64,000 bases of DNA, taken from IMG/VR virus record IMGVR_UViG_3300044644_001556, one strand, 5' to 3'. Shown piece after piece: positions 25,238 through 62,215 of this stretch (positions within the stretch are counted from its first letter, which is position 1; every line of letters begins with the position of its first letter). Source of the DNA: a virus. The notes beneath the pieces were generated by a model. It did no database searches, was not told the origin of the DNA, and saw only the letters and a program-made list of their open reading frames with translations. The position numbers and the translations under genes were made by a program.

Positions 25238-25245
25238 TTTATAAT

Positions 25246-25331
25246 TGGTGGGTAAGGTAGGATTCGAACCTACTCAGCCAAAGGCGACAGATTTACAGTC
25301 TGCTGCGACTCTCCCACTTCGCCGCTTACCC
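25246..25331 (-). tRNA. tRNA-Tyr(GTA)
   Basis: Variable arm, loop CTGTAAA, CCA. Confidence 0.9.
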
Positions 25332-25337
25332 GATATT

Positions 25338-25414
25338 TGGTCTCCCATGAAGGATTTGAACCTCCGACCTGTCCGCCCCAAACGGACCGCCCTACCAGAC
25401 TGAGCTAATGGGAG
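25338..25414 (-). tRNA. tRNA-Pro(TGG)
   Basis: Cloverleaf, loop TTTGGGG, CCA. Confidence 0.9.
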
Positions 25415-25430
25415 AAAATTAATCTTTTAT

Positions 25431-25820: not shown

Positions 25821-25835
25821 ATTTATTCCGTTAAT

Positions 25836-25922
25836 TGGCGGAAGGTATAGGATTCGAACCTATACAACGATTTCTCGTTGACGGATTAGCAATCCGCTCT
25901 ATTACCATTCTAGCAACCTTCC
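25836..25922 (-). tRNA. tRNA-Ser(GCT)
   Basis: Long variable arm, loop TTGCTAA, G73, CCA. Confidence 0.9.
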
Positions 25923-26727: not shown

Positions 26728-26848
26728 ACTATCAATAATTGCCACCGCAAGGAATCGAACCTAGATTTACCGGTTTGTTAGCAAGTTGCCTTACACCATT
26801 TAGACGACAATAGCAATTATTGATAGTGCTTGTCTTTCCAAGCGGTCA
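26728..26848 (-). ncRNA. GGAAAGAC-head unit with 15-bp stem enclosing a degenerate tRNA-like domain
   Basis: Inverted repeat 26728-26742/26813-26827; T arm AGGTTCGATTCCT. Confidence 0.65.
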
Positions 26849-28361: not shown

Positions 28362-31199
28362 TTAGACACCAGGTGTTGTACTAGCACTAACTAAACTATC
28401 TAAACTAGTACCCACTGAGTTAGTAGCAGTTACTGTAAATGTATACGCAGTTCCGTTAGTTAATCCGGTTACTGTAATTGGCGATGCAATTCCAGTAGCT
28501 GTTATATTATCAGGATTTGATGTTACGGTATAACTAGTAATTGCACTACCACCATCGTTAGCTGGCGGAGTAAATTCTACCGTTACTTCAGCATCGCCAT
28601 TAATAGTAGTAATTATACTTGGAGCATCGGCGATAGTCACCGGAGTTACTCCACCACTTGGTAAACTTGCAGCACTAACACCAACTGAGTTAGTAGCGGT
28701 TACTGTAAATGTATACGCAGTTCCGTTAGTTAATCCGGTTACTGTAATTGGTGACGCAGTTCCAGTAGCTGTTATATTACCAGGATTTGATGTTATGGTA
28801 TAACCAGTAATTGCACTACCACCATTGTTAGTTGGTGGCGTAAATTCTACCGTAGCTTGGGCATTACCGACAACAATATTACCTACAGTTGGGGCGTCAG
28901 CGATAGTTGCTGGTGCTATCGGGGCGATACTAGAGCTAGCTGTGCTTGCAGCACTAACACCAACTGAGTTAGTAGCGGTTACTGTAAATGTATATGCAGT
29001 TCCGTTAGTTAATCCAGTTACCGTAATTGGCGATACAGTTCCAGTAGCTGTTATATTGCCGGGATTTGATGTTACTGTATAACCGGTAATTGTACTACCA
29101 CCATTGTTAGTTGGTGGAGTAAATTCAACTGTTACTTCGGTATTACCAGCAACTACATTACCAATGGTCGGTGCAGCAGCTACCGTAATTGGAACAATTG
29201 GAGTAATACTAGAGCTAGCGGCACTAGCAGTACTGATACCAATTGCGTTAGTCGCAGTTACTGTAAATGTATATGCTGTTCCGTTAGTTAAACCAGTTAC
29301 TATAATAGGAGACGAAGTTCCTACTGCTGTTATATTGCCGGGATTTGATGTTACCGTATAACTAGTAATTGCACTACCGCCATTGTTAGTTGGCGGTGTA
29401 AATTCTACGGTTACTTCGGCATTACCGACAGTCGCAGTTCCAATAGTTGGTGCACCAGCTACAGTAATTGGTATCACTGGGGTTATACTATTACTTGCTG
29501 CACTTGCAGCACTAACACCAACTGAGTTAGTAGCGGTTACTGTAAATGTATATGCAGTTCCGTTAGTTAATCCAGTTACGGTAATTGGTGATGCAGTTCC
29601 GGTAGCTGTTATGTTACCCGGATTTGATGTTACGGTATAACCAGTAATTGCACTGCCGCCATCATTAACTGGAGGTATAAATTCAACAGTAGCTTGAGTA
29701 TTACCGACAGTCGCAGTTCCAATAGTTGGTGCATCAGCTACAGTAATTGGTATCACTGGGGTTATACTATTACTTACTGCACTTGAGTTACTAGTACCAG
29801 CTAAATTAACAGCAGCAATTGTAAATGTATACGCCGTTCCTGTTGTTAAACCAGTCACCGTAATAGGTGAAGTTAAGCCAGAAGCTGTTATATTACCGGG
29901 ATTTGAAGTCGCTACGTAACTAGTAATTGTACTTCCGCCGTCATTAACTGGCGGATTAAATCCAACTGTTGCTGAGGTAGGAGTAGCCATAACCGCCGTT
30001 CCGATAATTGGTGCATCGGCGATAGTAATCGGCGTTACTGAATTACTTGGGATACTAGATGGACTAGATCCGGCTGCATTAACAGCAGAAACAGTAAATG
30101 TATAAACTGTTCCGTATGTTAACCCAGAAATCATAGTCGGCGATGAACTATCAGTTATCGTTATATTGCCTGGGTTTGATGTTACGATATAATTTGCTAT
30201 AGCACTGCCGCCTGTATTTGCGGGTACGGTATAAGTTATAGTTGCTGTGTTATTATTTAACGCCACGTTCGTTATCGATGGTGCAGTCGGTATAGTAATT
30301 GGCGTAATACTAGCACTAGCAGTACTTACTGAACTTACGCCGACTGAGTTAGTTGCGGTTATAGTAAACGTATATGGAGTCCCGTTAGTTAAACCAGAAA
30401 CCACTATAGGTGATGCAGTTCCAGTAGCCATTATATTTCCTGGATTTGAGGTTACCGTATATTGAGTTATTACGGCTCCGCCATTATCCATTGGGGGTGT
30501 AAATTCTATGGATGCTTGAGCATTACCTCCGGTGACTGTATTAATACTTGGTGCGCCCGGTATAGTATTTGGTCGGAATGGAGTTATACTATTGCTCGGT
30601 AAACTAGCTGGGCTGTTGCCGCCAGCATTGATAGCAGAAACAGTAAAAGTATACGGTATTCCGTTAGTTAAACCAGTTATTACAATAGGAGACTCAGTAC
30701 CTGTTGCCGTTATATTACCAGGTATTGATTTTACTAAAAATCCAGTAATTGGATTTCCTCCGTCGTAATATGGTTCCGCGAACGAAACTGTAGCTCTCGC
30801 ATCGCCAACGACCGCTACGACTGAAGTTGGAGCATCAGATACGGCCGGTAATTTTATACCGATTGCGTATTCTACGGTAATTGGATCAGTCGAATCAGTT
30901 GATATACTAATAGTTGTTTCGGCACCGTCGTAAGCGAATAATTTAGTAGTAACAGGTATCGATTGACTAGTCGTTACGTCAATCAAATCACTACTTAGTA
31001 TAACGCCGGCTCCGAGATTACCTAATACCATAGGACTATCAACATTAGTTAAATCTACAGAACCGATGGTATAACTACCGAACGGTAACTGCATATTACT
31101 AGCGATAATTCTATTCGTAGTTATACGACCATAGGCATTCTCGGTTTTAAGATCTGAGTTAAAATCAACTGCCAACGTAGTTGGGTTTCTTATCGCCAT
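28362..31199 (-). CDS. protein with nine tandem fibronectin type III domains (likely virion surface/adhesion)
   Basis: Nine ~93-aa repeats P..P.I......A.V.F.PP..GG..IT.Y...GLTNGT.YTFTV.A.N..G; CATAAATA at 31226-31233. Confidence 0.88.
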   Translation of the reverse strand: MAIRNPTTLAVDFNSDLKTENAYGRITTNRIIASNMQLPFGSYTIGSVDLTNVDSPMVLGNLGAGVILSSDLIDVTTSQSIPVTTKLFAYDGAETTISISTDSTDPITVEYAIGIKLPAVSDAPTSVVAVVGDARATVSFAEPYYDGGNPITGFLVKSIPGNITATGTESPIVITGLTNGIPYTFTVSAINAGGNSPASLPSNSITPFRPNTIPGAPSINTVTGGNAQASIEFTPPMDNGGAVITQYTVTSNPGNIMATGTASPIVVSGLTNGTPYTFTITATNSVGVSSVSTASASITPITIPTAPSITNVALNNNTATITYTVPANTGGSAIANYIVTSNPGNITITDSSSPTMISGLTYGTVYTFTVSAVNAAGSSPSSIPSNSVTPITIADAPIIGTAVMATPTSATVGFNPPVNDGGSTITSYVATSNPGNITASGLTSPITVTGLTTGTAYTFTIAAVNLAGTSNSSAVSNSITPVIPITVADAPTIGTATVGNTQATVEFIPPVNDGGSAITGYTVTSNPGNITATGTASPITVTGLTNGTAYTFTVTATNSVGVSAASAASNSITPVIPITVAGAPTIGTATVGNAEVTVEFTPPTNNGGSAITSYTVTSNPGNITAVGTSSPIIVTGLTNGTAYTFTVTATNAIGISTASAASSSITPIVPITVAAAPTIGNVVAGNTEVTVEFTPPTNNGGSTITGYTVTSNPGNITATGTVSPITVTGLTNGTAYTFTVTATNSVGVSAASTASSSIAPIAPATIADAPTVGNIVVGNAQATVEFTPPTNNGGSAITGYTITSNPGNITATGTASPITVTGLTNGTAYTFTVTATNSVGVSAASLPSGGVTPVTIADAPSIITTINGDAEVTVEFTPPANDGGSAITSYTVTSNPDNITATGIASPITVTGLTNGTAYTFTVTATNSVGTSLDSLVSASTTPGV

Positions 31200-43637: not shown

Positions 43638-43871
43638 TTATTGATCGATGCTTATATTTTTATTGCGGACTGGATAAACAACTAACGATAGACCTTTTCG
43701 ATTATATAGACTTTGGCTTTGATTATGCCAACCATGAATTTGAGTATATTCTATCCATTCGGTCCATGTCGGCATTCGCCAATCAGCATATCCATTATAA
43801 TTTAAAAATTGACAATATAATATCGCATCTTCTAATAAAACTAAACCTGATCTAGGAGCTATTTCTATCAT
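43638..43871 (-). CDS. DUF1566-like mini-protein
   Basis: Family motif; ATGA coupling. Confidence 0.78.
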   Translation of the reverse strand: MIEIAPRSGLVLLEDAILYCQFLNYNGYADWRMPTWTEWIEYTQIHGWHNQSQSLYNRKGLSLVVYPVRNKNISIDQ

Positions 43872-44092
43872 GCAGTTCTAATTGGCGTTACTATCCGCAC
43901 AAATCTAACATTAATACTACCCTCGTACCAAATATTAATCATTGATCCTCTACTCTTACTGTTAATATAATAATATTCTTCTTTAGTAGGCATTCGCCAA
44001 TCATTATATCCATTATAATTTAAAAATTGACAATATAATAATGCATCAGCATATACCATTTTATTTTTTGGGGATGGGGCTATTTCTATCAT
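43868..44092 (-). CDS. DUF1566-like mini-protein
   Basis: Family motif; start revised to the ATGA junction. Confidence 0.78.
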   Translation of the reverse strand: MIEIAPSPKNKMVYADALLYCQFLNYNGYNDWRMPTKEEYYYINSKSRGSMINIWYEGSINVRFVRIVTPIRTA

Positions 44093-44295
44093 ATATCTCG
44101 CACCGGAACTATAGCCCAATCCCCATCATCAAATTGAATAATCATCTGACACCAACTTATAATATGATAATCATCACATTCTTTTTTAGTCGGCATTCGC
44201 CAATCATTATGGCCCCGGTATTCTAAAAATTGGCAATATAATATAGCGTTATTATATGTCATTAATTCCGATAATTCTTCCGCTATCTCGATCAT
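44089..44295 (-). CDS. DUF1566-like mini-protein
   Basis: Family motif. Confidence 0.78.
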   Translation of the reverse strand: MIEIAEELSELMTYNNAILYCQFLEYRGHNDWRMPTKKECDDYHIISWCQMIIQFDDGDWAIVPVRDI

Positions 44296-44507
44296 ATATC
44301 ACGAACTGGATTTACCGGAGCTAATAACCCAGGTCGAAACTTCATATCAACCTGCCACCAATGATCATACCCGAGACCATATTCTTTACATTCAGCAAAT
44401 GTCGGTAATCGCCAATCAGTATAACCATTATAATTTAAAAATTGGCAATATAATATTGCATCATCATACGATAATAGTTTTTTACATTTTGGCGCTATTT
44501 CTATCAT
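44292..44507 (-). CDS. DUF1566-like mini-protein
   Basis: Family motif; start at MIEIAP. Confidence 0.75.
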   Translation of the reverse strand: MIEIAPKCKKLLSYDDAILYCQFLNYNGYTDWRLPTFAECKEYGLGYDHWWQVDMKFRPGLLAPVNPVRDI

Positions 44508-48577: not shown

Positions 48578-48823
48578 CTACACTTTATCTCTTACTGGTG
48601 TAACTGTTAAATTCGACGTAAATTCCATATCGTGATCATCTTGCCCCCATCCTAAACTACCGATTAATCTAGCCTCTGGGATAGTCGGCATCCTCCAATC
48701 TCGATGTCCATTATAATCTAAAAATCGGCAATATAATATTGCTTCGTCATATGACATTGATTTAGAAACAGGCCCTACCTCAAATAAGTCAGGCTCTACA
48801 TTATTATTGTAAATTCTAATCAT
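48578..48823 (-). CDS. DUF1566-like mini-protein
   Basis: Family motif. Confidence 0.78.
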   Translation of the reverse strand: MIRIYNNNVEPDLFEVGPVSKSMSYDEAILYCRFLDYNGHRDWRMPTIPEARLIGSLGWGQDDHDMEFTSNLTVTPVRDKV

Positions 48824-49134
48824 ATCCTTTTATTAAATAAAACATCAATAAACACATTAATTAAATATTTAATATCTCGTTTAAATGAGATTATAGATTC
48901 AATCCAATTCTTTGTTACTCGACACGGACAAACTTGATACTCACCTATACTATGATATCGCTCAATATCAGTATACCAAACCATAATCCGATATTGAACC
49001 CAATCGTTTGTAAATTCACTTATTGTAGGTAATCGCCAATCCGTATGACCATCTTGTTCTAGAAACTGGCAATATATCTTAGCTTCATCGAAAGTCATCT
49101 TATGCTTAGTTATCTGACCCCATTGCAATCTCAT
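48820..49134 (-). CDS. DUF1566-like mini-protein with C-terminal extension
   Basis: Family motif. Confidence 0.75.
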   Translation of the reverse strand: MRLQWGQITKHKMTFDEAKIYCQFLEQDGHTDWRLPTISEFTNDWVQYRIMVWYTDIERYHSIGEYQVCPCRVTKNWIESIISFKRDIKYLINVFIDVLFNKRI

Positions 49135-49352
49135 ATTTTATCTCTCACTGGTGAAGCAAGCATCGTCGGATGTTTACCATTAATCGAGTGCACTCTATTT
49201 AAATACCAGCCAGATAATGATTTAATATTATGATATTCAGCTTCTGTTGGTAAACGCCAATCAGTATAACCTCTAAATCGACAAAATGTACAATATAATA
49301 ACGCTTCGTCATATGTCATTAACCCACTAGATTTAGGAGCGAATTCTAACAT
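49131..49352 (-). CDS. DUF1566-like mini-protein
   Basis: Family motif; start revised. Confidence 0.78.
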   Translation of the reverse strand: MLEFAPKSSGLMTYDEALLYCTFCRFRGYTDWRLPTEAEYHNIKSLSGWYLNRVHSINGKHPTMLASPVRDKI

Positions 49353-49573
49353 ATATCTCTCACTGGTATTACCGTTTGTAGATATAAATGTTTTGGTGCT
49401 CCATACCATTTATTTTCATACCAACAGCCCGCATTGATACCATGGGTTTGCCAAAATTCATCCCAGGTCGGCATCCTCCAATCCGTATAACCATTATGCG
49501 TGCAGAATTGACAATACAATATTGCTTCCGCGTATGTCATCTGACCGTTCGATTCGGGAGCTGATTCTATCAT
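49346..49573 (-). CDS. DUF1566-like mini-protein
   Basis: Family motif; start revised to MIESAP. Confidence 0.78.
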   Translation of the reverse strand: MIESAPESNGQMTYAEAILYCQFCTHNGYTDWRMPTWDEFWQTHGINAGCWYENKWYGAPKHLYLQTVIPVRDIC

Positions 49574-50123: not shown

Positions 50124-50339
50124 TTAATCAACTATTATATCTCTTACTGGTATTATAGGATATCTAAATTCGCGGGATGATGGGTCATTTAAATGCCATC
50201 CGATGCTATCGCAATATATTCGCCATTCTTCTTTAGTAGGCATCCGCCAATCCTTATAACCAGCATGATTGCAAAATGCACAATATAATAATGCATCTTC
50301 GTATAATAAATGGTTTGATTTCGGTGCTATTTCTATCAT
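50124..50339 (-). CDS. DUF1566-like mini-protein
   Basis: Family motif. Confidence 0.78.
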   Translation of the reverse strand: MIEIAPKSNHLLYEDALLYCAFCNHAGYKDWRMPTKEEWRIYCDSIGWHLNDPSSREFRYPIIPVRDIIVD

Positions 50340-50542
50340 ATATCTCTTACCGGTACAATTAAATGATTTCCTTCAGCATATAACCGATTAATATACCAGC
50401 CGACAACATCATCATTTATAAACCAATCCGCGACAGTCGGCATCCGCCAGTCAATATGCCCATTATAAGTACAGAAGTGACAATATAATATCGCTTCATT
50501 ATATGTCATTAAACCGTTAGATTTAGGCGCTAATTCTATCAT
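50336..50542 (-). CDS. DUF1566-like mini-protein
   Basis: Family motif; start revised. Confidence 0.78.
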   Translation of the reverse strand: MIELAPKSNGLMTYNEAILYCHFCTYNGHIDWRMPTVADWFINDDVVGWYINRLYAEGNHLIVPVRDI

Positions 50543-50751
50543 ATATCTCTCACTGGTATTACCATCCAAGCTGTTAGATTAAATGTTGGATCTCGATCTA
50601 AATACCATCCAACTAAACCTGGCGAATCTTTCCATTCTTTATATGTCGGTAAACGCCAATCTTGATGTCCATTATAGTCTAGAAATTGACAATATAATAC
50701 GGCTTCATCATATGATAAATTAATTCGCGATCCTGGGGCCTGCTCTATCAT
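50539..50751 (-). CDS. DUF1566-like mini-protein
   Basis: Family motif; start revised. Confidence 0.78.
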   Translation of the reverse strand: MIEQAPGSRINLSYDEAVLYCQFLDYNGHQDWRLPTYKEWKDSPGLVGWYLDRDPTFNLTAWMVIPVRDI

Positions 50752-50963
50752 ATATCCCTCACCGGCGATACCCACCATAAGTAATCTTCAGCATTTACAC
50801 TCCATCTAGCAGACCGATCTATATACCAACAATTTAATGATTTATATTCAGCCCATGTCGGTAAACGCCAATCAGTATAGCCTTTATATGTACAGAATCG
50901 GCAATATAATATCGCTTCATCATAAGTCATCTTATTCTTAGATATAGGAGCGGTTTGTATCAT
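50748..50963 (-). CDS. DUF1566-like mini-protein
   Basis: Family motif. Confidence 0.78.
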   Translation of the reverse strand: MIQTAPISKNKMTYDEAILYCRFCTYKGYTDWRLPTWAEYKSLNCWYIDRSARWSVNAEDYLWWVSPVRDI

Positions 50964-51982: not shown

Positions 51983-52011
51983 ATTATACTACTAATAAAC
52001 ATAATTGTCAA
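51983..52011 (-). promoter_or_regulatory. consensus sigma70 promoter
   Basis: TTGACA-17-TATAAT. Confidence 0.7.
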
Positions 52012-52298
52012 ACCACATCTCTTACTGCTCGAACAAAATAGCGGACACTCTTGGGAGTGGGATACTGAGTGCCTGACATACTCTGATATAATGCACCGTA
52101 ACCGCCATCGGTCTCAGTAGACGACCAGTAACCTAAACCAACTAAATCGTTTTCTAATTGATATATTTCTTTTAATTCATCTGTGGTTGGCAATCGCCAA
52201 TCATTCTTCCCATCTATGGCTAGAAATGAACAATATAGTTTAGCATCATCCCAATTAGCAATAATCTCTGTTTCTTTAGGTGCTATTTTAAAATTCAT
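52008..52298 (-). CDS. DUF1566 protein with VR-like C-terminus
   Basis: NWDDAK.YC...WRLPT..EL..IY...YWSSTE...FVRAVR. Confidence 0.82.
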   Translation of the reverse strand: MNFKIAPKETEIIANWDDAKLYCSFLAIDGKNDWRLPTTDELKEIYQLENDLVGLGYWSSTETDGGYGALYQSMSGTQYPTPKSVRYFVRAVRDVV

Positions 52299-52636
52299 GA
52301 TAAACTCCGAACTGCTCTAACATAGCTGCTAGAATCCTTACTATTGTAGCCTTGATTACCATGCAACATACCCTGCTTCCAAGCACCCCAACCATCGACC
52401 TCAACCGCGGACCAGTAATATGAATCAATGAAATCATGTTCCGAATTATAGATCTGGGTTAATTCTTCTAATGTAGGTAACCTCCAATCTCTATGACCAT
52501 CTATTTCTAGAAATGAACAATATAAATTAGCTTCGGTCCAGTCGGCTTTTATCTCGGTCGATTTAGGCGCTATATCTATAGTAATAACAAATACCAAGTT
52601 TGTACTCTGAAACTTTAATCTACCTATTTCTATCAT
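52295..52636 (-). CDS. DUF1566 protein with VR-like C-terminus
   Basis: YWS..E....AW.Q....G.Q....K....YVRAVR. Confidence 0.82.
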   Translation of the reverse strand: MIEIGRLKFQSTNLVFVITIDIAPKSTEIKADWTEANLYCSFLEIDGHRDWRLPTLEELTQIYNSEHDFIDSYYWSAVEVDGWGAWKQGMLHGNQGYNSKDSSSYVRAVRSLS

Positions 52637-52640
52637 TAGT

Positions 52641-52862
52641 TTACCGTACCGGTTTTGCGTATCTAATCGCTAAGTTTAAATCTGCGAACCTATTATCAAA
52701 ATACCATCCATTAGATAAACCATTCTTGTATAAATTATTAAGATATTCATCCCGGGTTGGTAAACGCCAATCACTATATCCATTATATCTACAAAATTGA
52801 CAATATAATACGGCTTCTTCATACGTCATTTCGTTTTCGGATCTTAGAGCTAATTCTATCAT
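52641..52862 (-). CDS. DUF1566-like mini-protein
   Basis: Family motif. Confidence 0.78.
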   Translation of the reverse strand: MIELALRSENEMTYEEAVLYCQFCRYNGYSDWRLPTRDEYLNNLYKNGLSNGWYFDNRFADLNLAIRYAKPVR

Positions 52863-53068
52863 ATATCTCTCACCGGAGTTACTAAGAATTTATCGATCGG
52901 TTTAAATTGATTCTTTTTAACATACCACCCGTGAGTCACATATGGATTACTATATTCTTCCTTAGTAGGCATACGCCAATCTCGATATCCATTATAATCT
53001 AAGAATGTGCAATATATTACAGCTTCCTCGTATGTTAGCATCGGAGATATTGGCGCAAATTCTATCAT
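52859..53068 (-). CDS. DUF1566-like mini-protein
   Basis: Family motif; start revised. Confidence 0.78.
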   Translation of the reverse strand: MIEFAPISPMLTYEEAVIYCTFLDYNGYRDWRMPTKEEYSNPYVTHGWYVKKNQFKPIDKFLVTPVRDI

Positions 53069-53319
53069 ACATCTCTCACTGGTATAACAAAATTTACATC
53101 CCTTACTGGTATAACGAAACATATCCCATCAAAATCATCACCTAAATACCAACTTGAGTAACCATCTAATGCAAAATAATACTCATCTGCATTCGGTAAC
53201 CGCCAATTACGATATCCATTATGCTGACAAAATGCACAATATAATAATGCATCACCATACGTCATTTCATTTTCAGATCTTGGAGCCGCCTCAATATTGA
53301 AATCAGCTAGCTCTATCAT
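53065..53319 (-). CDS. DUF1566-like mini-protein with duplicated ends
   Basis: MIELADFNIEAAP...VIPVRDVNFVIPVRDV. Confidence 0.78.
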   Translation of the reverse strand: MIELADFNIEAAPRSENEMTYGDALLYCAFCQHNGYRNWRLPNADEYYFALDGYSSWYLGDDFDGICFVIPVRDVNFVIPVRDV

Positions 53320-53534
53320 ACATCTCTCACTGGTCCAACCCACCATGTAAATAAAGTTCGATTTCGATCTGAATCGTACCGATTAATATACCACCCATGC
53401 ATACTATTAAGTAAATATTCTTTTTTTGTAGGCATACGCCAATCACTATATCCATTATATCTACAAAATGTACAATATAAAACGGCTTCTTCATATGCCA
53501 TTTCGTTTTTAGATATTGGGGCGAATTCTATCAT
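53316..53534 (-). CDS. DUF1566-like mini-protein
   Basis: Family motif; start revised. Confidence 0.78.
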   Translation of the reverse strand: MIEFAPISKNEMAYEEAVLYCTFCRYNGYSDWRMPTKKEYLLNSMHGWYINRYDSDRNRTLFTWWVGPVRDV

Positions 53535-53740
53535 ATATCTCTCACCGGAACCGCATACCATAACAACTGAGATGCACTTCCATTGTACCACGCATTTAAA
53601 CCAATATGCGAACCGTTAATATATTCAGCCCACGTAGGTAATCGCCAATTACTATACCCATCCCAGCCGCAAAATACACAATATAATATTGCGTCTTCAT
53701 ACGTCATTTCATTTTCGGATCTTGGGGCATACACTATCAT
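53531..53740 (-). CDS. DUF1566-like mini-protein
   Basis: Family motif. Confidence 0.78.
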   Translation of the reverse strand: MIVYAPRSENEMTYEDAILYCVFCGWDGYSNWRLPTWAEYINGSHIGLNAWYNGSASQLLWYAVPVRDI

Positions 53741-53994
53741 ATATCTCTCACCGGTATCAACCAGAATTTAAGAAAATTCGGATACTGATTCTTAACTCCC
53801 CATGATTCTAACGACCATATATTATCAATATAAATTTCATTATCTCCGTATACTATCGGACATACTTCTAAAAGTTCTTGATAATTAGGTAACCGCCAAC
53901 CAGTAACTCCGTCAATAACAATAAAATTAACAACCAAGGTCATATCATTGTTATTTAATTTCCGCCAATACTGATTATCGCTAATTTCTATCAT
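53737..53994 (-). CDS. divergent DUF1566-like mini-protein
   Basis: GWRLPN..EL...PVRDI. Confidence 0.7.
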   Translation of the reverse strand: MIEISDNQYWRKLNNNDMTLVVNFIVIDGVTGWRLPNYQELLEVCPIVYGDNEIYIDNIWSLESWGVKNQYPNFLKFWLIPVRDI

Positions 53995-54215
53995 ACGTTC
54001 CTTACTGCTGTCGCGTAATTTTTAACGCTCGATGGAACTTGCAATTCAGAACCATACCAACTCGATAATAACACATCTAAATTTTTATGCCATTCAGGTC
54101 GAGTTGGTAACCTCCAATCTTTATGCCCATTGCATTCTAGAAATTGGCAATATAATATCGCCTCACCATATGACATCTCATTATCCGATATCGGAGCAAA
54201 TTCTATATTCATCAT
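53991..54215 (-). CDS. DUF1566-like mini-protein
   Basis: Family motif. Confidence 0.78.
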   Translation of the reverse strand: MMNIEFAPISDNEMSYGEAILYCQFLECNGHKDWRLPTRPEWHKNLDVLLSSWYGSELQVPSSVKNYATAVRNV

Positions 54216-55648: not shown

Positions 55649-56767
55649 CTATTGTGTTCGAACCGCTCTAACATAAAATTTATATAATGTAGCTGACGTA
55701 TATGAACTCTGCTTTGATTTAAACCAACATTGTACCGATGCAGTTCCGTATTTACTTTTTACTTGTTCACCCCAGTAAATATCGTTATACTCATCCATCA
55801 ATTTATATTTAGAACTAGATTGAATAGTCGCTAAATTTTTAATCATCAATTCCATTTCGTCTTTAGTTGGTAACCGCCAATCATTATGACCACCATAAGT
55901 TAGATTATTACAATATTCATCTGCTTCTGGCCATGTTAATTGTTTTTGAGTCTCTATAGGACTCAATATCAAAGTCTTACCGTCAATCTCACCTACTACT
56001 AAACCACCACCTTGCTCTACCTTTTTTGTTGGTTTTAAATGTGGCTTATCTGTATACACCTTATTTAAAATAAGATCGATCTTTTTGATATATTTTGTTG
56101 AAGTAAAGAACCCTTGCGATTTTTCTCCATCATGAATAACGCCGGTTTGTTGTGGTTCACTTATATATGCATAACCTAATTGTCTTAATATAATATTAGT
56201 ATCAACGGTTTGGGTATCCTTAGTTACATTAACGACCTTTTGTGTCTCAGGATTAACTGCCTTCACCGGCTGTCTATTCGGATTTAATTTAGGTATGAAA
56301 TGTATTAAATGCCAAAATGAATCAAACGTATTAACCATCCCGAACGCGTTTTTCTCATTCATGATTTTATAACCAGCATCAACATCATATCCCAATTTCC
56401 GCAATTTAGTTTCATCGGCCCGCATATCATCCATCGTATACTTTGAGATATCTGATATAAATCGCTGACCCTGCCCGTTATATTTAATAACATGTATATA
56501 CGGCATACTAGCTCCGTATGTAAATGTTTTTGATAAATCTGAGGTTTCGTTTAATTTATACTGTTCCCAAAATGTTTTTAATGGGTAAAAATATATCCCA
56601 ATCGGCGTAGTCCATGAGCTTTTTGGATATACCCCAAGTTTGATAATAGGTGAAAAATGTATAAAAATATTTGGATCATCTTTATACTTCATTAATTGCT
56701 GTGCTGCAGATACCCGTAAGTTCTGTTCTGGATTTCGTCGAGCTTCGAATAACTCACTTAATTTCAT
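55649..56767 (-). CDS. MKLSELFE-tagged protein with C-terminal DUF1566 domain, late-promoter gene
   Basis: LTWPEA..YC..L.YGGHNDWRLPT..E...YW...YVRAVR; TATAAATA at 56795-56802. Confidence 0.78.
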   Translation of the reverse strand: MKLSELFEARRNPEQNLRVSAAQQLMKYKDDPNIFIHFSPIIKLGVYPKSSWTTPIGIYFYPLKTFWEQYKLNETSDLSKTFTYGASMPYIHVIKYNGQGQRFISDISKYTMDDMRADETKLRKLGYDVDAGYKIMNEKNAFGMVNTFDSFWHLIHFIPKLNPNRQPVKAVNPETQKVVNVTKDTQTVDTNIILRQLGYAYISEPQQTGVIHDGEKSQGFFTSTKYIKKIDLILNKVYTDKPHLKPTKKVEQGGGLVVGEIDGKTLILSPIETQKQLTWPEADEYCNNLTYGGHNDWRLPTKDEMELMIKNLATIQSSSKYKLMDEYNDIYWGEQVKSKYGTASVQCWFKSKQSSYTSATLYKFYVRAVRTQ

Positions 56768-56805
56768 AATATAAATACCGTAGAATAATCGTAATATTTA
56801 TAACC

Positions 56806-57039
56806 CTAAATATTGATCTTCGTATCCACTAATACATCTCTTACTGGTTGAATAGTCCATTTATCTAGGGGACGCCAACTTGTACTTTCATACCAACCAA
56901 ATATATTACCGCTCATACTATATTCTTCCGGTGTAGCCATACGCCAATCAGTATATCCATTATAATCACAAAATCGACAATATAATATCGCCTCACTATA
57001 TGTCATTTTTTTTTCTGATATTGGAGCTAATTCTATCAT
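56806..57039 (-). CDS. DUF1566-like mini-protein
   Basis: Family motif; start revised. Confidence 0.78.
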   Translation of the reverse strand: MIELAPISEKKMTYSEAILYCRFCDYNGYTDWRMATPEEYSMSGNIFGWYESTSWRPLDKWTIQPVRDVLVDTKINI

Positions 57040-57302
57040 ACATCCCTTACCGGACAAACCTTCCAGTTCGTATTATAATCAAACTTATCTATATGCCTAT
57101 TAACATACCATCCAGTAAGCCCCAGATTCGTACTATATTCATCCCGAGTAGGCATCCGCCAATCAGTATATCCATTATGCGTACAAAATCGACAATATAA
57201 TACTGCTTCTTCATATGGCATACCATTCACCGACTTTGGAGCTATTTCTATAATATATCCATCACTTGTGAAACCTTTCAGTGGTTGAGTAAATGTTATC
57301 AT
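57036..57302 (-). CDS. DUF1566-like mini-protein with N-terminal junction relic
   Basis: Family motif; start revised. Confidence 0.75.
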   Translation of the reverse strand: MITFTQPLKGFTSDGYIIEIAPKSVNGMPYEEAVLYCRFCTHNGYTDWRMPTRDEYSTNLGLTGWYVNRHIDKFDYNTNWKVCPVRDV

Positions 57303-57505
57303 ATATCCCGCACTGGGGTTACACACCACATGTAATCTGTTTTACGATCAATATACCAACTCCAACTAAAGTTGTACAGTCTCCACTCTTCAATTGTCGG
57401 CATTCGCCAATCTCTACGCTCGTTACACTCTAAGAATCGACAATATAATATTGCTTCACCATAAGTCATTTCAATTTCGGATCTCGGGGCGAATTCAATA
57501 TTCAT
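57299..57505 (-). CDS. DUF1566-like mini-protein
   Basis: Family motif; start revised. Confidence 0.78.
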   Translation of the reverse strand: MNIEFAPRSEIEMTYGEAILYCRFLECNERRDWRMPTIEEWRLYNFSWSWYIDRKTDYMWCVTPVRDI

Positions 57506-57711
57506 ATGTCTCTCACCGGCATTACATAATCTTCCCAATACGATGACGGATCATTTAAATACCACATAGTATAAATCGCCAAATACTCACATTCGTCCCG
57601 TGTTGGCAACCTCCAATCGGTATTACCATTATGGTTACAAAATGTACAATATAATAACGCCTCTTCATACGTCATCTCTTTTTCTGATGTTGGTGCTGAT
57701 TCAATATTCAT
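57502..57711 (-). CDS. DUF1566-like mini-protein
   Basis: Family motif; start revised. Confidence 0.78.
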   Translation of the reverse strand: MNIESAPTSEKEMTYEEALLYCTFCNHNGNTDWRLPTRDECEYLAIYTMWYLNDPSSYWEDYVMPVRDI

Positions 57712-57926
57712 ATATCTCTCACTGGACAAACGATCCGTCTACCAGTCATTGCATCATTATACCAACCCGTATTCCAACAACCTGTTACTATTTCATCTTC
57801 CGCAAAATATTCATCTTTAGTGGGTAACCGCCAATCGGTATAATCATCGTGCTGACAAAAGGTACAATATAATATTGCTTCGCTATATGTCATTTCTTTT
57901 TCTGATATTGGAGCTAATGCTAACAT
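57708..57926 (-). CDS. DUF1566-like mini-protein
   Basis: Family motif. Confidence 0.78.
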   Translation of the reverse strand: MLALAPISEKEMTYSEAILYCTFCQHDDYTDWRLPTKDEYFAEDEIVTGCWNTGWYNDAMTGRRIVCPVRDI

Positions 57927-58144
57927 ATATCCCTCACAGGCGTGACATGATCTAAGATGTACTGTAATCCACTGTATGCCCTATCATTTTCGGACCATCC
58001 ACGCGTACTCACGTGCTCCAGTAATTCAGCGCTTGTAGGTAATCGCCAATCATTATGATCGCCGTGTCTACAAAACGCACAATATAATACAGCGTCATTA
58101 TACCGCAACATCCGACGGGGACCTGGTGCGACTTCAATATTCAT
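57920..58144 (-). CDS. DUF1566-like mini-protein
   Basis: Family motif; start revised. Confidence 0.78.
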   Translation of the reverse strand: MNIEVAPGPRRMLRYNDAVLYCAFCRHGDHNDWRLPTSAELLEHVSTRGWSENDRAYSGLQYILDHVTPVRDIC

Positions 58145-58356
58145 ACATCCCTCACCGGAGTTACCCACGATGCGTAACATACCGTTCGATCAATATACCA
58201 ATCTCCAACTCTAGCGTCATGATATGCATTAGATGAGTATTCATCCCGCGTAGGCATTCTCCAATCTCTATGCCCATTATATTCAAGAAATTGACAATAT
58301 AATATTGCTTCTTCATATGTCATATAGTTTTTAGATCTAGGAGCTACTTCTAACAT
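58141..58356 (-). CDS. DUF1566-like mini-protein
   Basis: Family motif; start revised. Confidence 0.78.
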   Translation of the reverse strand: MLEVAPRSKNYMTYEEAILYCQFLEYNGHRDWRMPTRDEYSSNAYHDARVGDWYIDRTVCYASWVTPVRDV

Positions 58357-58559
58357 GCATCCCTCACCGGCACTACATACCAAAGCTGCTCAGTATTTAG
58401 ATCAATAAACCAACTGCATGATCGGGTACATATTAAGTAATATTCATCCAGTGTCGGTAATCGCCAATCTCGGTGTCCGTTGTAATCTAAGAATGTACAA
58501 TATAGTATAGCTTCTTCATATGCCATTTCTTGGGCGGACATTGGGGCTACTTCTATCAT
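58350..58559 (-). CDS. DUF1566-like mini-protein
   Basis: Family motif; start revised. Confidence 0.78.
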   Translation of the reverse strand: MIEVAPMSAQEMAYEEAILYCTFLDYNGHRDWRLPTLDEYYLICTRSCSWFIDLNTEQLWYVVPVRDAC

Positions 58560-58756
58560 ATACTTCTCACCGGTACTACGCTCCATATTCCACTCTCAGG
58601 ATCATTTAAATACCAACAATGCATATTATTACTCGAATACTCATCTTCAACTGGTAAACGCCAATCCTTATGACCACCATAATCTAAAAATTGACAATAT
58701 AATAAGGCTTCACCATACGTCATAACGTTTTTTGATCTTGGCGCAAATTCTATCAT
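58556..58756 (-). CDS. DUF1566-like mini-protein
   Basis: Family motif. Confidence 0.78.
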   Translation of the reverse strand: MIEFAPRSKNVMTYGEALLYCQFLDYGGHKDWRLPVEDEYSSNNMHCWYLNDPESGIWSVVPVRSI

Positions 58757-58956
58757 ACAGTCCTCACCGGTGTAACATTACGAGTATTGAAACCTCCTTT
58801 CCTATCAACAAACCACCCAGAGAGACCTGTAGTATCAAGGTATTCACTACTCGTCGGCATACGCCAATCTCTATGCCCATTGTATTCGAGAAATTGACAA
58901 TATAATATTGCTTCTTCATATGACATTACTTTAGATGGTGGTGCTTTCTCTATCAT
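58753..58956 (-). CDS. DUF1566-like mini-protein
   Basis: Family motif. Confidence 0.78.
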   Translation of the reverse strand: MIEKAPPSKVMSYEEAILYCQFLEYNGHRDWRMPTSSEYLDTTGLSGWFVDRKGGFNTRNVTPVRTV

Positions 58957-58966
58957 AACACTTCGA

Positions 58967-59266
58967 TTATGCTAATGTATATGTAAAAGTTTGTTTCTTA
59001 TTATCAGTAGCCATTCCAATATATTCCGGTACTTGCCCTTCATCTCGATACTCAACCATTGACCCTCTCCAGGTTTGTGTACATTCAGCTAATGTCGGGT
59101 GATTTGATGCTTCTATTAAAAAATTAATATATTCGGTTTTTACTGACTCAGTTACACCCACCTGAACTTTAATTCGAATCTCAGTTGGTGTGACAGTTAA
59201 TTTGAATCTGGCATTATTACCATCTGTAATAACAACATTTTTATTTGATTTGGTATTATATAACAT
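58967..59266 (-). CDS. hypothetical protein
   Basis: AGGAG SD, promoter upstream. Confidence 0.65.
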   Translation of the reverse strand: MLYNTKSNKNVVITDGNNARFKLTVTPTEIRIKVQVGVTESVKTEYINFLIEASNHPTLAECTQTWRGSMVEYRDEGQVPEYIGMATDNKKQTFTYTLA

Positions 59267-59346
59267 AAATTCTCCTATTGTAGTTAAATTCTTAGCTGCT
59301 TCATATATTATAGCTCAAATATAAGCTGATTGCAAGTACTATACTA

Positions 59347-59634
59347 TCATATATCCCTTACAGCACGCACGTAGTGGCCGCTATAGTCCTTATCGTCGAA
59401 GCCCACGTAGCTATTAGTTAGATTCTGAATCCAGGCGCCGTCGCTATCATCATCAGTAGAGGACCAGTAGTAGTCATTAGTAAAATTATTTTTAGATTGG
59501 TATATCTCATGCAATTCTTCTATTGTAGGCAATCTCCAACCTTTCTTTCCAGCTACTTCTAAAAAGGTACAATATATCTTAGCATCATACCAGTTAGCTT
59601 TGATTGCTGTTTCTTTAGGCGCTATTTCAAACAT
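59347..59634 (-). CDS. DUF1566 protein with VR-like C-terminus
   Basis: YYWSSTDDDSDGAWIQNL...K....YVRAVR; GC-rich NNY codons. Confidence 0.85.
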   Translation of the reverse strand: MFEIAPKETAIKANWYDAKIYCTFLEVAGKKGWRLPTIEELHEIYQSKNNFTNDYYWSSTDDDSDGAWIQNLTNSYVGFDDKDYSGHYVRAVRDI

Positions 59635-59855
59635 ACGTCTCTCACAGGCACTACAGATAAAAATATACCATCATTTTTAATATTAACGTCATCGCACCAC
59701 CAGGACATCAACTGAATATGATCCAAATTTATCCATTCCTCTTCGGTTGGCATACGCCAATCTCTATAACCATCATACTCCAGAAATTGACAATATAATA
59801 ATGCGTCATCATATGTCATTAGATTCTCTGTCTCAGGCGCAATCTCTACCGTCAT
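59622..59855 (-). CDS. DUF1566-like mini-protein
   Basis: Family motif; N-terminus nearly identical to 48078..48320. Confidence 0.78.
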   Translation of the reverse strand: MTVEIAPETENLMTYDDALLYCQFLEYDGYRDWRMPTEEEWINLDHIQLMSWWCDDVNIKNDGIFLSVVPVRDVCLK

Positions 59856-59886
59856 AATGCATACCATGTTTTGTTACAACAAAGAT

Positions 59887-59915
59887 ATTATAACTCATAC
59901 TTGATAATAGATCAA
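59887..59915 (-). promoter_or_regulatory. early promoter
   Basis: TTGATC-17-TATAAT plus leader. Confidence 0.7.
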
Positions 59916-59984
59916 GTACTATTGTACATCTTTTACCGAACCATACTTACTTGTTTATACCTGTAGTAATTTACTTTATAATAA

Positions 59985-60266
59985 TTAACATACTAACGCC
60001 ATTGACCTTTGGGATATAGTAGCTATTGCTATCGTATATTCATCATTAGACATATCCCTCACCGGACAAACTTCACGCCAAACTTTACTAACACCCACCC
60101 TATCAATATACCACCCGACTCTAGAGTTAAGCAATTCCTCGGAGAAATATTCATCAAACGTAGGCATTCGCCAATCATTATGCCCATCGTGTCTACAAAA
60201 TACGCAATATAATATTGCTTCTTCATATGGCATTATAATTCCAGATCTAGGTGCTACTGCTATCAT
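59985..60266 (-). CDS. DUF1566-like mini-protein
   Basis: Family motif. Confidence 0.78.
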   Translation of the reverse strand: MIAVAPRSGIIMPYEEAILYCVFCRHDGHNDWRMPTFDEYFSEELLNSRVGWYIDRVGVSKVWREVCPVRDMSNDEYTIAIATISQRSMALVC

Positions 60267-60478
60267 ACATCCCTTACCGGCGTCACTGTGTGTTTGACGT
60301 ACATTATTAATGGGATGGAATTATTATGCCATCCCCATATGTTATATCGATAATCACTCCACTCTTCTTTCGTCGGCATTCGCCAGTCCGTATGACCATT
60401 ATAGGTACAAAATTGACAATATAATATTGCTTCTTCATATGCCATTTCGTTTTTAGATATTGGTGCAAATTGTATCAT
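60263..60478 (-). CDS. DUF1566-like mini-protein
   Basis: Family motif; start revised. Confidence 0.78.
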   Translation of the reverse strand: MIQFAPISKNEMAYEEAILYCQFCTYNGHTDWRMPTKEEWSDYRYNIWGWHNNSIPLIMYVKHTVTPVRDV

Positions 60479-60702
60479 ACATCCCTCACCGGTAATACGT
60501 AATAAGCTAACCAAGGTATTAACATTCCGGTATGCCAACATCTAGCTGTTCGAACTTGATCAACATACATCTGCCAATAATGGTATTCTTCTGTAGTAGG
60601 TATTCTCCAATCTCTGTGACCATTATATTCTAAAAATTGACAATATAATATAGCCTCATCGTGATATAGATAGTTATTAAATACTGGCGCATATTCTAAC
60701 AT
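60475..60702 (-). CDS. DUF1566-like mini-protein
   Basis: Family motif; start revised. Confidence 0.78.
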   Translation of the reverse strand: MLEYAPVFNNYLYHDEAILYCQFLEYNGHRDWRIPTTEEYHYWQMYVDQVRTARCWHTGMLIPWLAYYVLPVRDV

Positions 60703-60899
60703 ACCTCCCTCACTGGCACTACGGTGTACTGACCGCTTGCAGGATCGTTTAAATACCATCCAGAAATATCAAACTCGTAATATTCATCAAATGTAGTCAT
60801 TCGCCAATCCCTATGTCCATTATAATCACAAAATGAACAGTATAATATCGCTTCATCATATGTCATATACTTTTCTGATCTTGGTGCAAATTCTATCAT
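60696..60899 (-). CDS. DUF1566-like mini-protein
   Basis: Family motif; start revised. Confidence 0.78.
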   Translation of the reverse strand: MIEFAPRSEKYMTYDEAILYCSFCDYNGHRDWRMTTFDEYYEFDISGWYLNDPASGQYTVVPVREVC

Positions 60900-61105
60900 A
60901 CATCCCTCACCGGGCAAACTTTCCATTTTGATACCCACTCACTACTTCTACAGACATACCATCCAGAAATACCTATAACATCCATATATTCAGCTCGATC
61001 AGGTAATCGCCAATCCCGATGCCCGTTATAATCTAAAAATGCACAATATAATACAGCTTCTTCATACGTCATTTCGTGATCGGATATTGGGGCTACTTCT
61101 AACAT
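60896..61105 (-). CDS. DUF1566-like mini-protein
   Basis: Family motif; start revised. Confidence 0.78.
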   Translation of the reverse strand: MLEVAPISDHEMTYEEAVLYCAFLDYNGHRDWRLPDRAEYMDVIGISGWYVCRSSEWVSKWKVCPVRDV

Positions 61106-61201
61106 ATATCTCTCGGTGTATATTGGTAAACTCAATGCTCTTACACTATCGGAGTAAGTATACTCCCGAGTTGATTTAATTTGTAAAAGATTATTGGTAT
61201 A

Positions 61202-61909
61202 TTAAATACTCCGAACTGCGCGAACATAGTTGCCGTTAAACTTATTACCATGCCCCTGATAGCCGTCGGACATATCCTGTCTCCAAGCGCCATTACTAAC
61301 GCCCTCAGTACCCGACCAGTAGTTGTCCTTAATAAAATCATTATTAGATTCATAGATTTGATTTAATTCTTTTTTAGTTGGTAATCTCCAGCCATCTCCT
61401 AATGATTTTACATATTCAACAGCTTCATACCAAGTCATCATTTTTTCCGGCGACCGTGTCGCAATTTCAAACGGCAAGGTTGGGTTTTGTTTAACTATAT
61501 CTCTTACTGCTCTAACGTAGGCGCTGTAACCCTTGAAGAAGTTGAACTGATTGCCATCGGACAAATTCTGACCCCAGGCGCCGTCGCCACTGCCCTCTGT
61601 AGACGACCAGTAGTAGTCCTTAGTAAAATCATTTTCAGAATTATATATTTCATGCAATTCTTCAATAGTCGGAAGACGCCATCCTTCTCCTAACGATTCA
61701 ATATATGCAACCGCATCATTCCAATTCATCTTTTTTGTTGTAGCTTTATCAGCAATTTCAAATGGTAAATCTGATTTGTATTTTATCATGATAGGTTTTA
61801 CAACATCTAAATTTAACTGCAGTAATTTGATAAATTCTTCCACTTGTTCTCTGGAAATATTATTAACCGCATCCCAGGAATAAGTTTCTGATTTTCTAAT
61901 ATTAAACAT
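61202..61909 (-). CDS. tandem two-domain DUF1566 protein, both domains with VR-like C-termini
   Basis: 2x LPFEIA...M.W..AV.Y..SLG.GWRLPT..EL..IY...YWS.TE...AW.Q....G.Q....K....YVRAVR. Confidence 0.88.
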   Translation of the reverse strand: MFNIRKSETYSWDAVNNISREQVEEFIKLLQLNLDVVKPIMIKYKSDLPFEIADKATTKKMNWNDAVAYIESLGEGWRLPTIEELHEIYNSENDFTKDYYWSSTEGSGDGAWGQNLSDGNQFNFFKGYSAYVRAVRDIVKQNPTLPFEIATRSPEKMMTWYEAVEYVKSLGDGWRLPTKKELNQIYESNNDFIKDNYWSGTEGVSNGAWRQDMSDGYQGHGNKFNGNYVRAVRSI

Positions 61910-61956
61910 TTTTAATATTTCCTTTTAATAAATTGATTATCTAATACAACAAATAT

Positions 61957-61985
61957 ATTATAACAAAAAAAGACATCCATGTCCA
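61957..61985 (-). promoter_or_regulatory. early promoter (TGGACA variant)
   Basis: TGGACA-17-TATAAT plus ATATTTGTTGTAT. Confidence 0.72.
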
Positions 61986-62215
61986 GCCATTTGTTTACTT
62001 ACCACATACCGCACTATAACCAATAATAATCGATTGTAAATTCATCTGATCTAACACTACAGTCTTTTCTTGCTTTGATTTTAAACAATCAGCAATTGAA
62101 TCAAAATTAAAGGTTAATATAGTTGGTGGGGTTGATAAATGAAATGTTAATGCGATTACTAATTTAATCATTTTTGCTTTTCCTATTTAGTTAAGTTATC
62201 TGATACAACAAATAT

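Follow-up and report, generated by a model that had tools for sequence, protein, structure and literature searches.

Stop–start junctions in arrays of miniature lectin-like phage genes: a constraint-held repeat at which whole genes are probably exchanged

Arrays of small Lcl_C/DUF1566 genes

The window analysed here is a stretch of 64,000 nt from a large freshwater phage, and it holds at least 58 genes of the Lcl_C/DUF1566 family between 13054 and 61909, far beyond the runs collected in Table 1. The original prediction had described runs of 10, 7, 5, 4 and 4 small genes (hereafter cassettes) joined head to tail; all five are present as claimed, together with one further run of four. Sigma-70-like promoter matches precede both the pair at 59855 and the 99-aa gene, so that each run looks like a transcription unit of its own; no terminator-like site was seen between 48000 and 62500. 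Among isolated phages, megablast and tblastn found nothing related to the region or to a cassette, IMG/VR searches anchored on the 372-aa and 99-aa neighbours gave nothing useful, and no description of arrays of DUF1566 mini-genes in phages was found in the literature searched.

Table 1. Features of the arrays, their junctions and their scars (window coordinates)
Feature	Position	Strand	Remarks
Run of 10 mini-genes	56806–58956	-	ATGA or ATGTTAG overlaps; ninth gene carries a fused remnant
Run of 5 mini Lcl_C/DUF1566 genes	59985–61105	-	Joined by -4/-7 overlaps
Genes of the 5-gene run	60896–61105, 60696–60899, 60475–60702, 60263–60478, 59985–60266	-	
Run of 7 short cassettes	52641–54212	-	Two long-type Lcl_C genes follow immediately; whole block 52008–54212
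Long-type Lcl_C genes after the 7-cassette run	52295–52636 and 52008–52298	-	
Run of 4 cassettes	50124–50963	-	
Run of 4 cassettes	48578–49573	-	Absent from the original prediction
Run of 4 cassettes	43638–44507	-	
Pair: short-type cassette 59622–59855 and full-length Lcl_C gene 59347–59634	59347–59855	-	13-nt overlap
Non-family 99-aa gene between two runs	58967–59266	-	Orthologous anchor to L006, ~93% nt identity
Sigma-70-like promoter match (10/12)	59887–59915	-	Ahead of the 59855 pair
Second sigma-70-like promoter match	59307–59335	-	Ahead of the 99-aa gene
Representative junction	60891–60913	-	Perfect 23-nt consensus match: PVRDV codons, purine SD-like tract, ATGA overlap, MIE codons
Dead junction	57246–57268	-	ATG changed to ATT, read through in frame; behind ~50-nt cassette remnant
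Remnant of internally deleted cassette	57252–57302	-	Start with first ~21 nt and last ~30 nt kept; fused to next cassette
Junction-like leader and ATG of the run's first gene	61103–61119	-	Leader 61106–61117; no gene ends there
27-nt tandem duplication of C-terminal coding end	53065–53118	-	Outer copy functional
Doubled N-terminus (MIELA...IEAAP)	53281–53319	-	Same gene as the 53065–53118 duplication

The cassette proteins, miniature Lcl_C/DUF1566 domains of 66–95 aa, appear to be small C-type-lectin-like proteins, with profile scores and fold matches that are weak for the short members. Against PF07603 (gathering cut-off 34.9 bits) the long members score 43.5–95 bits (59347–59634, 61202–61909, 55649–56767 and 52008–52298), the full-length Lcl_C gene at 59347–59634 reaching 58.3 bits, whereas the short cassettes fall below the cut-off at 23.6–25.2 bits (E ~1e-5, profile positions 19–61 only), the first gene of the five-gene run giving 25.2 bits. 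Precomputed Pfam tags of the relatives also include PF07603, mostly weakly. An AF2 model of a cassette (pLDDT 93) places the terminal strands at residues 2–4 and 66–68, and Foldseek returned only weak matches in the PDB (all E > 0.3), led by the minimal CLec-like poxvirus proteins A33/A35 (TMq 0.6–0.66) and with Lcl-CTD (8q4e) in 17th place.

Junction anatomy and codon choice

The conserved junction of about 20 nt that had been predicted between consecutive cassettes is borne out, in that the 23-nt consensus CCNGTGAGRGATRTATGATAGAA has 23 matches with up to three mismatches, all on the minus strand of the window, against none in 100 shuffles (0 expected). It reads ...P-V-R-D-(I/V)-TGA, with the TGA lying within ATGA and the downstream gene opening M-I-E; in the variant ATGTTAG the downstream gene opens M-L-E and the upstream gene closes ...C-TAG. 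The claimed P-V-R-D-I/V-stop overlapping the next start is borne out. Consecutive family genes in the window overlap by -4 in 24 cases (25 with the extended start at 57302), by -7 in four, and by -8, -13 and -20 in one each. As in coupled operons, the stop overlaps or abuts the next start and an SD-like tract lies within the preceding gene, at 24–25 ATGA and four ATGTTAG junctions. No recurrent inverted repeat or hairpin was found at the junctions, and no Rfam match between 56000 and 62000.

The junction ranks highest in an ungapped information-content profile, but such a profile underestimates internal blocks because of codon indels, and a register-free analysis of exact matches was therefore relied on instead. 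By that measure 214 pairs of window paralogues share their longest exact match in the 5' constant coding block and 45 pairs in the junction. Adjacent junctions are more similar to one another than distant ones (0.59 versus 0.52 identity, p = 6e-5), forming local dialects.

Amino-acid constraint does not fully explain this conservation. At window junctions the valine codon is GTG in 21 of 25 cases, against 11 per cent elsewhere in the same genes and 2 of 13 terminal ends (Fisher p = 7e-5), and the arginine codon is AGR in 23 of 25, against 38 per cent elsewhere. Loci of the far clade behave alike (GTG at 39 of 51 junctions, background 11 per cent), and in the pooled data coupled ends exceed uncoupled ends in both GTG (93/135 versus 15/37, p = 0.002) and AGR (115/135 versus 23/37, p = 0.004). 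Together these choices create a GGTGA/GAGG purine tract with complementarity to the tail of the 16S rRNA, which may act as a Shine–Dalgarno (SD) sequence for a translationally coupled downstream gene. Predicted pairing with the 16S tail is -6.0 kcal/mol at coupled junctions versus -2.9 at random sites, and is better with GTG than with GTA by 1–2.7 kcal/mol; SD-like motifs precede 68 per cent of non-family genes versus 10 per cent of random sites. The first genes of runs mostly go without a good SD, so that a strong one is not essential for these genes.

Cassette turnover in relatives and scars in the window

Related phages of two clades, all of them metagenome assemblies, carry the same arrays with different cassette content, and their gene order is not the same throughout. 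Four precise one-unit indels were mapped between related loci (L005/L006, 215 nt; L022/L020, 262 nt; L024/L021, 209 nt; L021/L024, 217 nt), as were a block replacement between L020 and L022 with both ends within the junction, a cassette swap between L021 and L024 (K-M-T versus T-M-R-K) switching at the junction, and a change to different cassettes directly after the 99-aa anchor gene between L006 and the window, also switching at the junction. Of the 14 mapped breakpoints, twelve fall between about -22 and +13 nt relative to the junction ATG, and none of the mapped events has broken the stop/start overlap. The indel between L005 and L006 terminates in non-coding DNA, and the exact repeat of 9 nt that bounds it (17/22 positions) is the junction itself. 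Orthologous cassettes occupy different array positions while retaining 84–95 per cent identity. The predicted role of the junction as a crossover point at which units are added, lost or swapped is therefore supported in relatives, with internal exceptions: a crossover in the second cassette of L006 (+12 to +50), within the 5' constant half; a replacement that switches at about +20 to +25; and a conversion-like patch, also in the constant block. Independent assemblies reproduce each of the arrangements seen in the window, L005, L006 and L024, and the key arrangements found more than once are those of L006/L007/L008, L024/L025, L017/L019, the window with L002–L004, and L005 with its second contig; L020 and L021 come from one metagenome assembly only, and mis-joins at repeats are possible for those loci.

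The window itself retains all three of the scars that had been claimed for it, namely doubled termini (53065–53319), a dead junction inside 57036–57302 and an orphan leader at about 61105–61117. In the C-terminal duplication the inner copy has GTA for valine and has lost its ATG; the functional copy is the outer one, with GTG and ATGA. The structure of the remnant at 57252–57302, at whose upstream ATG the JGI gene call (88 aa) starts, shows a deletion that occurred without junction precision. The orphan leader lies 96 nt from the nearest upstream gene, whose end is at 61202.

The array of this phage looks old and static. The best identity between window paralogues is 43–61 per cent (aa), with no recent duplicates, and the DNA is 100 per cent identical over 13–16 kb in three other metagenome contigs, among which no structural variation of this phage was seen. 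Contigs that carry the window's own protein are identical in DNA and thus uninformative on turnover, and paralogues no more than 61 per cent identical imply that turnover is slow. The label of 'accordion array' in the original prediction is therefore not supported: neither recent near-identical copies nor copy-number polymorphism was found, and the mapped events are seen in relatives.

Interpretation and comparison with known systems

There is good reason to think that the junction, the overlapping end and start of paralogous mini-lectin genes, is a direct repeat held in place by constraint at which recombination exchanges whole ORFs, and we regard this as probable. Three stacked constraints would keep it nearly constant. 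It encodes the strand that closes one protein (V-x-P-V-R-D) and the strand that opens the next (M-I-E-x-A-P); its Val-Arg pair is held as GTG-AGR, which with a preceding CCG/CCA gives a purine tract (GGTGA, GAGG) able to pair with the 16S rRNA tail 5–12 nt before the next start; and the stop lies within ATGA, or four nucleotides later where the overlap is ATGTTAG, so that the terminating ribosome would sit on the next start, as in classical translational coupling. The result is a well-conserved short direct repeat, one per unit and in register, and phage recombination, or slippage between direct repeats, would then add, delete, replace and reorder whole ORFs with frame and coupling unbroken. 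Such a pathway is putative, and the role of the junction in recombination may be selected or a by-product; the junction may be a mechanistic hot spot or only the place where surviving events can lie.

It might instead be argued that the junction is conserved for protein termini and translation only, with recombination no commoner there, and that breakpoints gather at it since only ORF-precise products survive and the variable halves lack homology. Islands of identity inside the genes do exceed the junction matches in length and number, crossover and conversion have taken place internally, remnants of imprecise events persist in the window (57252–57302 and the doubled termini), and the arrays are old and stable. 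In-register internal crossovers, however, would likewise leave the chimeric ORFs intact, yet no more than 2 of the 14 boundaries fall there; the indel between L005 and L006, bounded by the junction repeat, ends in non-coding DNA; and adjacent junctions share non-structural tail variants (TNND, TIND, DIDD) when the cassette bodies are only about 45 per cent identical. We consider this account unlikely. That no cassette moved at all, the differences being assembly artefacts at short repeats or in-place hypermutation of the variable halves, might be entertained given that every relative is a metagenome assembly and that DUF1566-type domains are known targets of diversity-generating retroelements (DGRs) (PMC5758913), but it is very improbable: the key arrangements turn up again in separate samples and assemblies, the indels of single units are clean, and orthologues that share 84–95 per cent identity at different positions are impossible by in-place divergence. 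Cassette-precise gain, loss and reordering also resemble the work of an integron, but a dedicated site-specific system (integron-like or a homing nuclease) that recognises the junction is scarcely credible when the junctions have no recurrent hairpin, when no integrase or recombinase domain was found among the 20 larger window ORFs scanned (PHROGs and Pfam), and when the windows in which breakpoints fall differ in place and extent, which fits exchange that depends on homology and not on a specific site. On the evidence above, the integron-like, accordion and assembly-artefact readings were all rejected.

Exchange of whole ORFs at a constraint-held repeat would be a phage route to a repertoire of small binding proteins that is both large and able to evolve, in which one short sequence serves protein fold, ribosome loading, re-initiation and whole-gene exchange. 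A bolder extension, which we offer as speculative, is that the coding overlap is under selection as a general joint for recombination, by which ORF-precise binder cassettes are exchanged within and between co-infecting large-phage genomes, possibly via excised mini-circles, to give combinatorial germline mini-lectin repertoires without integrase or retroelement, and that several mini-gene families in large aquatic phages, unrelated to one another, work on the same principle.

The proteins themselves may be compared with Lcl_C/DUF1566 (PF07603) and the CLec2 DGR variable proteins (PMC5758913), with which they share a constant N-terminal half (A-x-x-Y-C, DWRLPT), a terminal strand and a concentration of diversity in the C-terminal half. 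The cassettes cover roughly half to four-fifths of the 117-position PF07603 model, and unlike CLec2 DGR proteins they keep their diversity as dozens of germline paralogues rather than generating it by retroelement; no reverse transcriptase was seen in the window. Like integron cassettes (IntI, attC x attI) they are promoterless single-ORF units that are gained, lost and reordered, but they belong to one protein family, their joints lie within coding sequence, no attC hairpin or attC-type imperfect inverted repeat bounds them, and no IntI tyrosine recombinase was found among the same 20 ORFs. Head-to-tail paralogues whose copy number is altered by recombination between repeats recall tandem multigene families that evolve by unequal crossing-over, poxvirus gene accordions among them, but accordions consist of recent near-identical copies that expand and contract fast, whereas the units exchanged here have distinct variable halves, the copies are at most 61 per cent identical and the array is invariant across samples. 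Deletions between short direct repeats are familiar in phage T4 from the classical rII deletion studies, and the L005/L006 indel, with its 9 exact nucleotides, is typical of that kind; what differs is that constraints on coding and translation systematically supply one such repeat with every gene.

The closest known analogue appears to be the modular shuffling of promoter-early stem-loop (PeSL) cassettes in the hyperplastic regions of T4-type phages (Arbiol et al. 2010, PMC2839356; Comeau et al. 2014, PMC4122927), for which excised mini-circles have been shown. In both cases short conserved repeats flank small non-essential genes of a large T4-like phage without a dedicated recombinase, and indel and replacement endpoints between close relatives lie in the repeat, here at 12 of the 14 boundaries noted above. 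PeSLs, however, are intergenic modules that pair a sigma-70-like early promoter with a stem-loop terminator behind it and flank unrelated ORFans, whereas the junction is a coding overlap of paralogous genes, with neither promoter, stem-loop nor intergenic space, whose signals would be translational and not transcriptional. The idea of modular shuffling may in this way be extended from intergenic regulatory repeats to coding overlaps, which would provide concrete joints for recombination-driven repertoire evolution in uncultured large phages.

Cassettes and their shared junction

The arrays are built from mini-genes that probably belong to the Lcl_C/DUF1566 family. Long members exceed the Pfam gathering cut-off for PF07603 (34.9 bits) at 43.5–95 bits, and the 66–77-aa cassettes score 23–25 bits over its first half alone. 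In an alignment of 33 cassettes (A1) the N-terminal half is constant, with A5, A17, Y20, C21, F23, W32 and R33 invariant, and is followed by a hypervariable stretch of variable length and an invariant closing P-x-R. AlphaFold2 run on A1 confidently predicted a small domain (pLDDT 93) with a strand at residues 2–4, two helices and a strand at 66–68. All Foldseek matches to this model were weak (E > 0.3), the best being minimal C-type-lectin-like domains, with the Legionella Lcl C-terminal domain at rank 17. C-type-lectin-like folds pair the first strand with the last, and such pairing here would account for the conservation of both protein ends, and hence of both sides of the junction. A profile search returned 6160 cluster representatives at E <= 1e-3, including many stand-alone 68–95-aa proteins and some two-unit fusions; three proteins of the library (P0034, P0039 and P0050; 140–160 aa) each matched the whole length of the cassette profile twice and are apparently two cassettes fused in one ORF.

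Every gene in the region is encoded on the minus strand. From 13054 to 61909 a motif-based census counted at least 58 members of the family and returned the run lengths of 10, 7, 5, 4 and 4 given in the original prediction, together with a further run (table). Consecutive members overlap by -4 in 24 cases (25 if the extended start at 57302 is counted), by -7 in four, and by -8, -13 and -20 in one each. The 23-nt junction consensus has 23 matches in the window at <=3 mismatches and none in 100 dinucleotide-preserving shuffles. It encodes ...Pro-Val-Arg-Asp-(Ile/Val)-TGA, the TGA lying inside ATGA and the next gene beginning Met-Ile-Glu. The other form opens the next gene with ATGTTAG (Met-Leu-Glu) and extends the preceding one by a codon, to Cys-TAG. 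The coding block M-T-Y-x-E-A-I-L-Y-C of many cassettes also gives a promoter-like reading on the sense strand, ATGACA-16-TATATT (10/12 matches), which could be a chance product of coding conservation or could mark internal promoters.

Codon choice and the predicted translation signal

Synonymous codon bias rules out amino-acid constraint as the full explanation of the junction. The valine of P-V-R is GTG at 21/25 window junctions, compared with 11% of valine codons elsewhere in the same genes and 2/13 C-termini without a following family gene (Fisher p = 7e-5), and the arginine is AGA or AGG at 23/25 junctions versus 38% elsewhere in the same genes. Loci of the far clade behave similarly (GTG 39/51 against an 11% background). 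When ends were instead classified as coupled to any downstream start or uncoupled, GTG was found in 93/135 and 15/37 (p = 0.002) and AGR in 115/135 and 23/37 (p = 0.004), respectively. The doubled C-terminus at 53065-53118 is a natural control within the window: the inner copy, with no start after it, reads GTA and its ATG is gone, whereas GTG and ATGA are both present in the outer copy.

Judging from sequence, the host-type translation signal is the Shine–Dalgarno (SD); SD-like motifs precede 68% of non-family genes versus 10% of random positions, and several of these genes use an AAGGTGA-type SD. The junction tract (C)CGGTGAGR holds two stretches complementary to the 16S tail, GGTGA and GAGG. 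Coupled junctions have a mean predicted pairing of -6.0 kcal/mol, compared with -2.9 for random sites, and GTG improves on GTA by 1–2.7 kcal/mol; most genes at the head of a run have no good SD. The dual use originally proposed for the junction is thus upheld by codon bias and predicted pairing, from which we infer that the tract serves as SD.

Gain, loss and exchange in related phages

Relatives were drawn from a nearer clade reached through homologues (L005; L006, L007 and L008; and L009) and from a second clade found by scanning IMG/VR with A1 (L016–L025, large uncultured viral genomes of 88–372 kb). The arrays and the junction principle recur in every one of them; in the far clade the overlap is either -4 (PVRD[L/I/V]-stop) or -8 (such as PVRTKDD-stop). 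The window phage's own array shows no variation: the protein encoded at 58141-58356 recurs unchanged on at least 19 contigs, and the three of these that were retrieved, from three metagenome samples (L002–L004), are 100% identical to the window over 13–16 kb. Cassette content varies between genomes that share flanks of 89–99% identity. Independent assemblies or samples gave the same arrangement again for the window, for L005, for L006 and for L024, and the arrangements of L020 and L021 rest on one assembly.

Mapped events and array features (breakpoints in nt from the junction ATG)
Feature	Position	Strand	Remark
E1: 215-nt cassette in L006, missing from L005	L006 4591-4805		end of run
E2: 262-nt cassette in L020, missing from L022			ambiguity window about -22 to +13
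EX: 209-nt cassette, L021 only			endpoints in junction
EY: 217-nt cassette, L024 only			endpoints in junction
Block replacement: L020 three family genes + one other gene vs L022 two genes
Swap: L021 cassettes K-M-T vs L024 T-M-R-K plus four more
Further run of four cassettes	48578-49573	-	motif-based census
Promoter-like matches within cassettes (examples)	57866-57893, 58296-58323, 56979-57006	-	10/12 matches
Long members above PF07603 cut-off	59347-59634; 52008-52298	-	Pfam score
Long member with two PF07603 domains	61202-61909	-	Pfam score
Long member, PF07603 at its C-terminus	55649-56767	-	Pfam score
Imprecise event: ~50-nt remnant	57252-57302	-	window
Imprecise events: three doubled N-termini	57036-57302, 53065-53319, 52295-52636	-	window

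The repeat GTATGAAGT, matching at 17/22 positions over the junction, flanks E1, and since this cassette lies at a run end the junction was the only homology available. In the block replacement the left flank stays identical up to the ATG and the right flank is identical again from the P-V-R codons; in the swap, orthologous cassettes are 84–95% identical and all flank switches fall within roughly -22 to +10. The 99-aa gene at 58967-59266 has a counterpart of about 93% identity in L006, where it is followed by orthologues of the window's sixth (57708-57926, 72% aa) and then third (58350-58559, 84% aa) cassettes, the first switch falling at the ATG. None of the mapped events has broken the stop/start overlap. 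Gene order in relatives thus differs by indels, a replacement and a swap, and units have been added, lost and exchanged with the overlap kept, as had been predicted. Between its cassette runs L006 also carries a 292-aa histidine-kinase-like gene (6919-7797; HisKA weak, HATPase_c).

Probable recombination at the junction and known systems

The protein ends, SD and ATGA overlap would jointly freeze about 25–35 nt once per unit, and recombination, homologous or between short repeats, would then survive preferentially at this repeat, so that ORFs would be moved as exact units and stay coupled. We consider this account likely. The window phage is T4-like, and T4-like phages are avid recombiners. 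A dedicated site-specific system moving the cassettes is unlikely: neither hairpins at the junctions, nor an Rfam match in 56000-62000, nor an integrase among the 20 larger ORFs scanned was found, and breakpoint windows differ in position and length.

The junction is one of three identity islands among cassettes, and of 820 window cassette pairs, 214 have their longest exact match in the 5' constant block and 45 have it in the junction. The second L006 cassette is chimeric, its first ~12–50 nt resembling the window's seventh cassette and the remainder the third; adjacent L006 cassettes (540-580, 750-790) share a constant-half patch, Q-F-L-E-x-N-G-C-R-G-W-R, missing in the window orthologues, which suggests gene conversion. 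In an L005/L006 replacement identity is lost at about +20 to +25, and imprecise events are also present in the window (table). No two paralogues of the window are more than 61% identical, so none is a recent duplicate, and the term accordion array, in the poxvirus sense, does not apply. Junction identity is higher between adjacent than distant copies (0.59 vs 0.52; p = 6e-5), and sub-arrays have arbitrary tail variants in common; this likeness of neighbors fits local duplication or homogenization and falls short of proving a hot spot.

The window phage probably belongs to the freshwater pmoC/amoC-phages known from Lake Mendota and other lakes (PMC7674155; bioRxiv 10.64898/2026.06.18.733297). 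ORF 22663-23421 (-) is a full-length AmoC/PmoC, ammonia/methane monooxygenase subunit C (PF04896, 401.8 bits), within a cluster of 11 ordinary tRNAs (22133-25922); beside the cluster ARAGORN called a tRNA with a four-base anticodon (aaca) at 26739-26815 (-) and assigned it no identity. The window also encodes an NAD salvage pair within 3062-5656 (-), namely nicotinamide phosphoribosyltransferase (3062-4384) and an NMN adenylyltransferase/Nudix fusion (4691-5656), an RNA ligase (7670-8695) and a 945-aa tail-protein-like ORF (28362-31199, -) that matches one PHROG four times; opposite-strand ORFs at 28825, 29104 and 29383 have a 279-nt period, which points to internal tandem repeats in it.

The literature searched gives no description of DUF1566 mini-gene arrays in phages, nor do they appear in two papers on pmoC/amoC phages from these lakes. 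The closest described system is the PeSL-mediated modular shuffling of T4-type phages (PMC2839356), which has the same outcome; the PeSL repeat, however, is intergenic and transcriptional, whereas the junction repeat is coding and translational. DUF1566-type domains are also known as DGR targets (PMC5758913), while here diversity is stored as paralogues instead.
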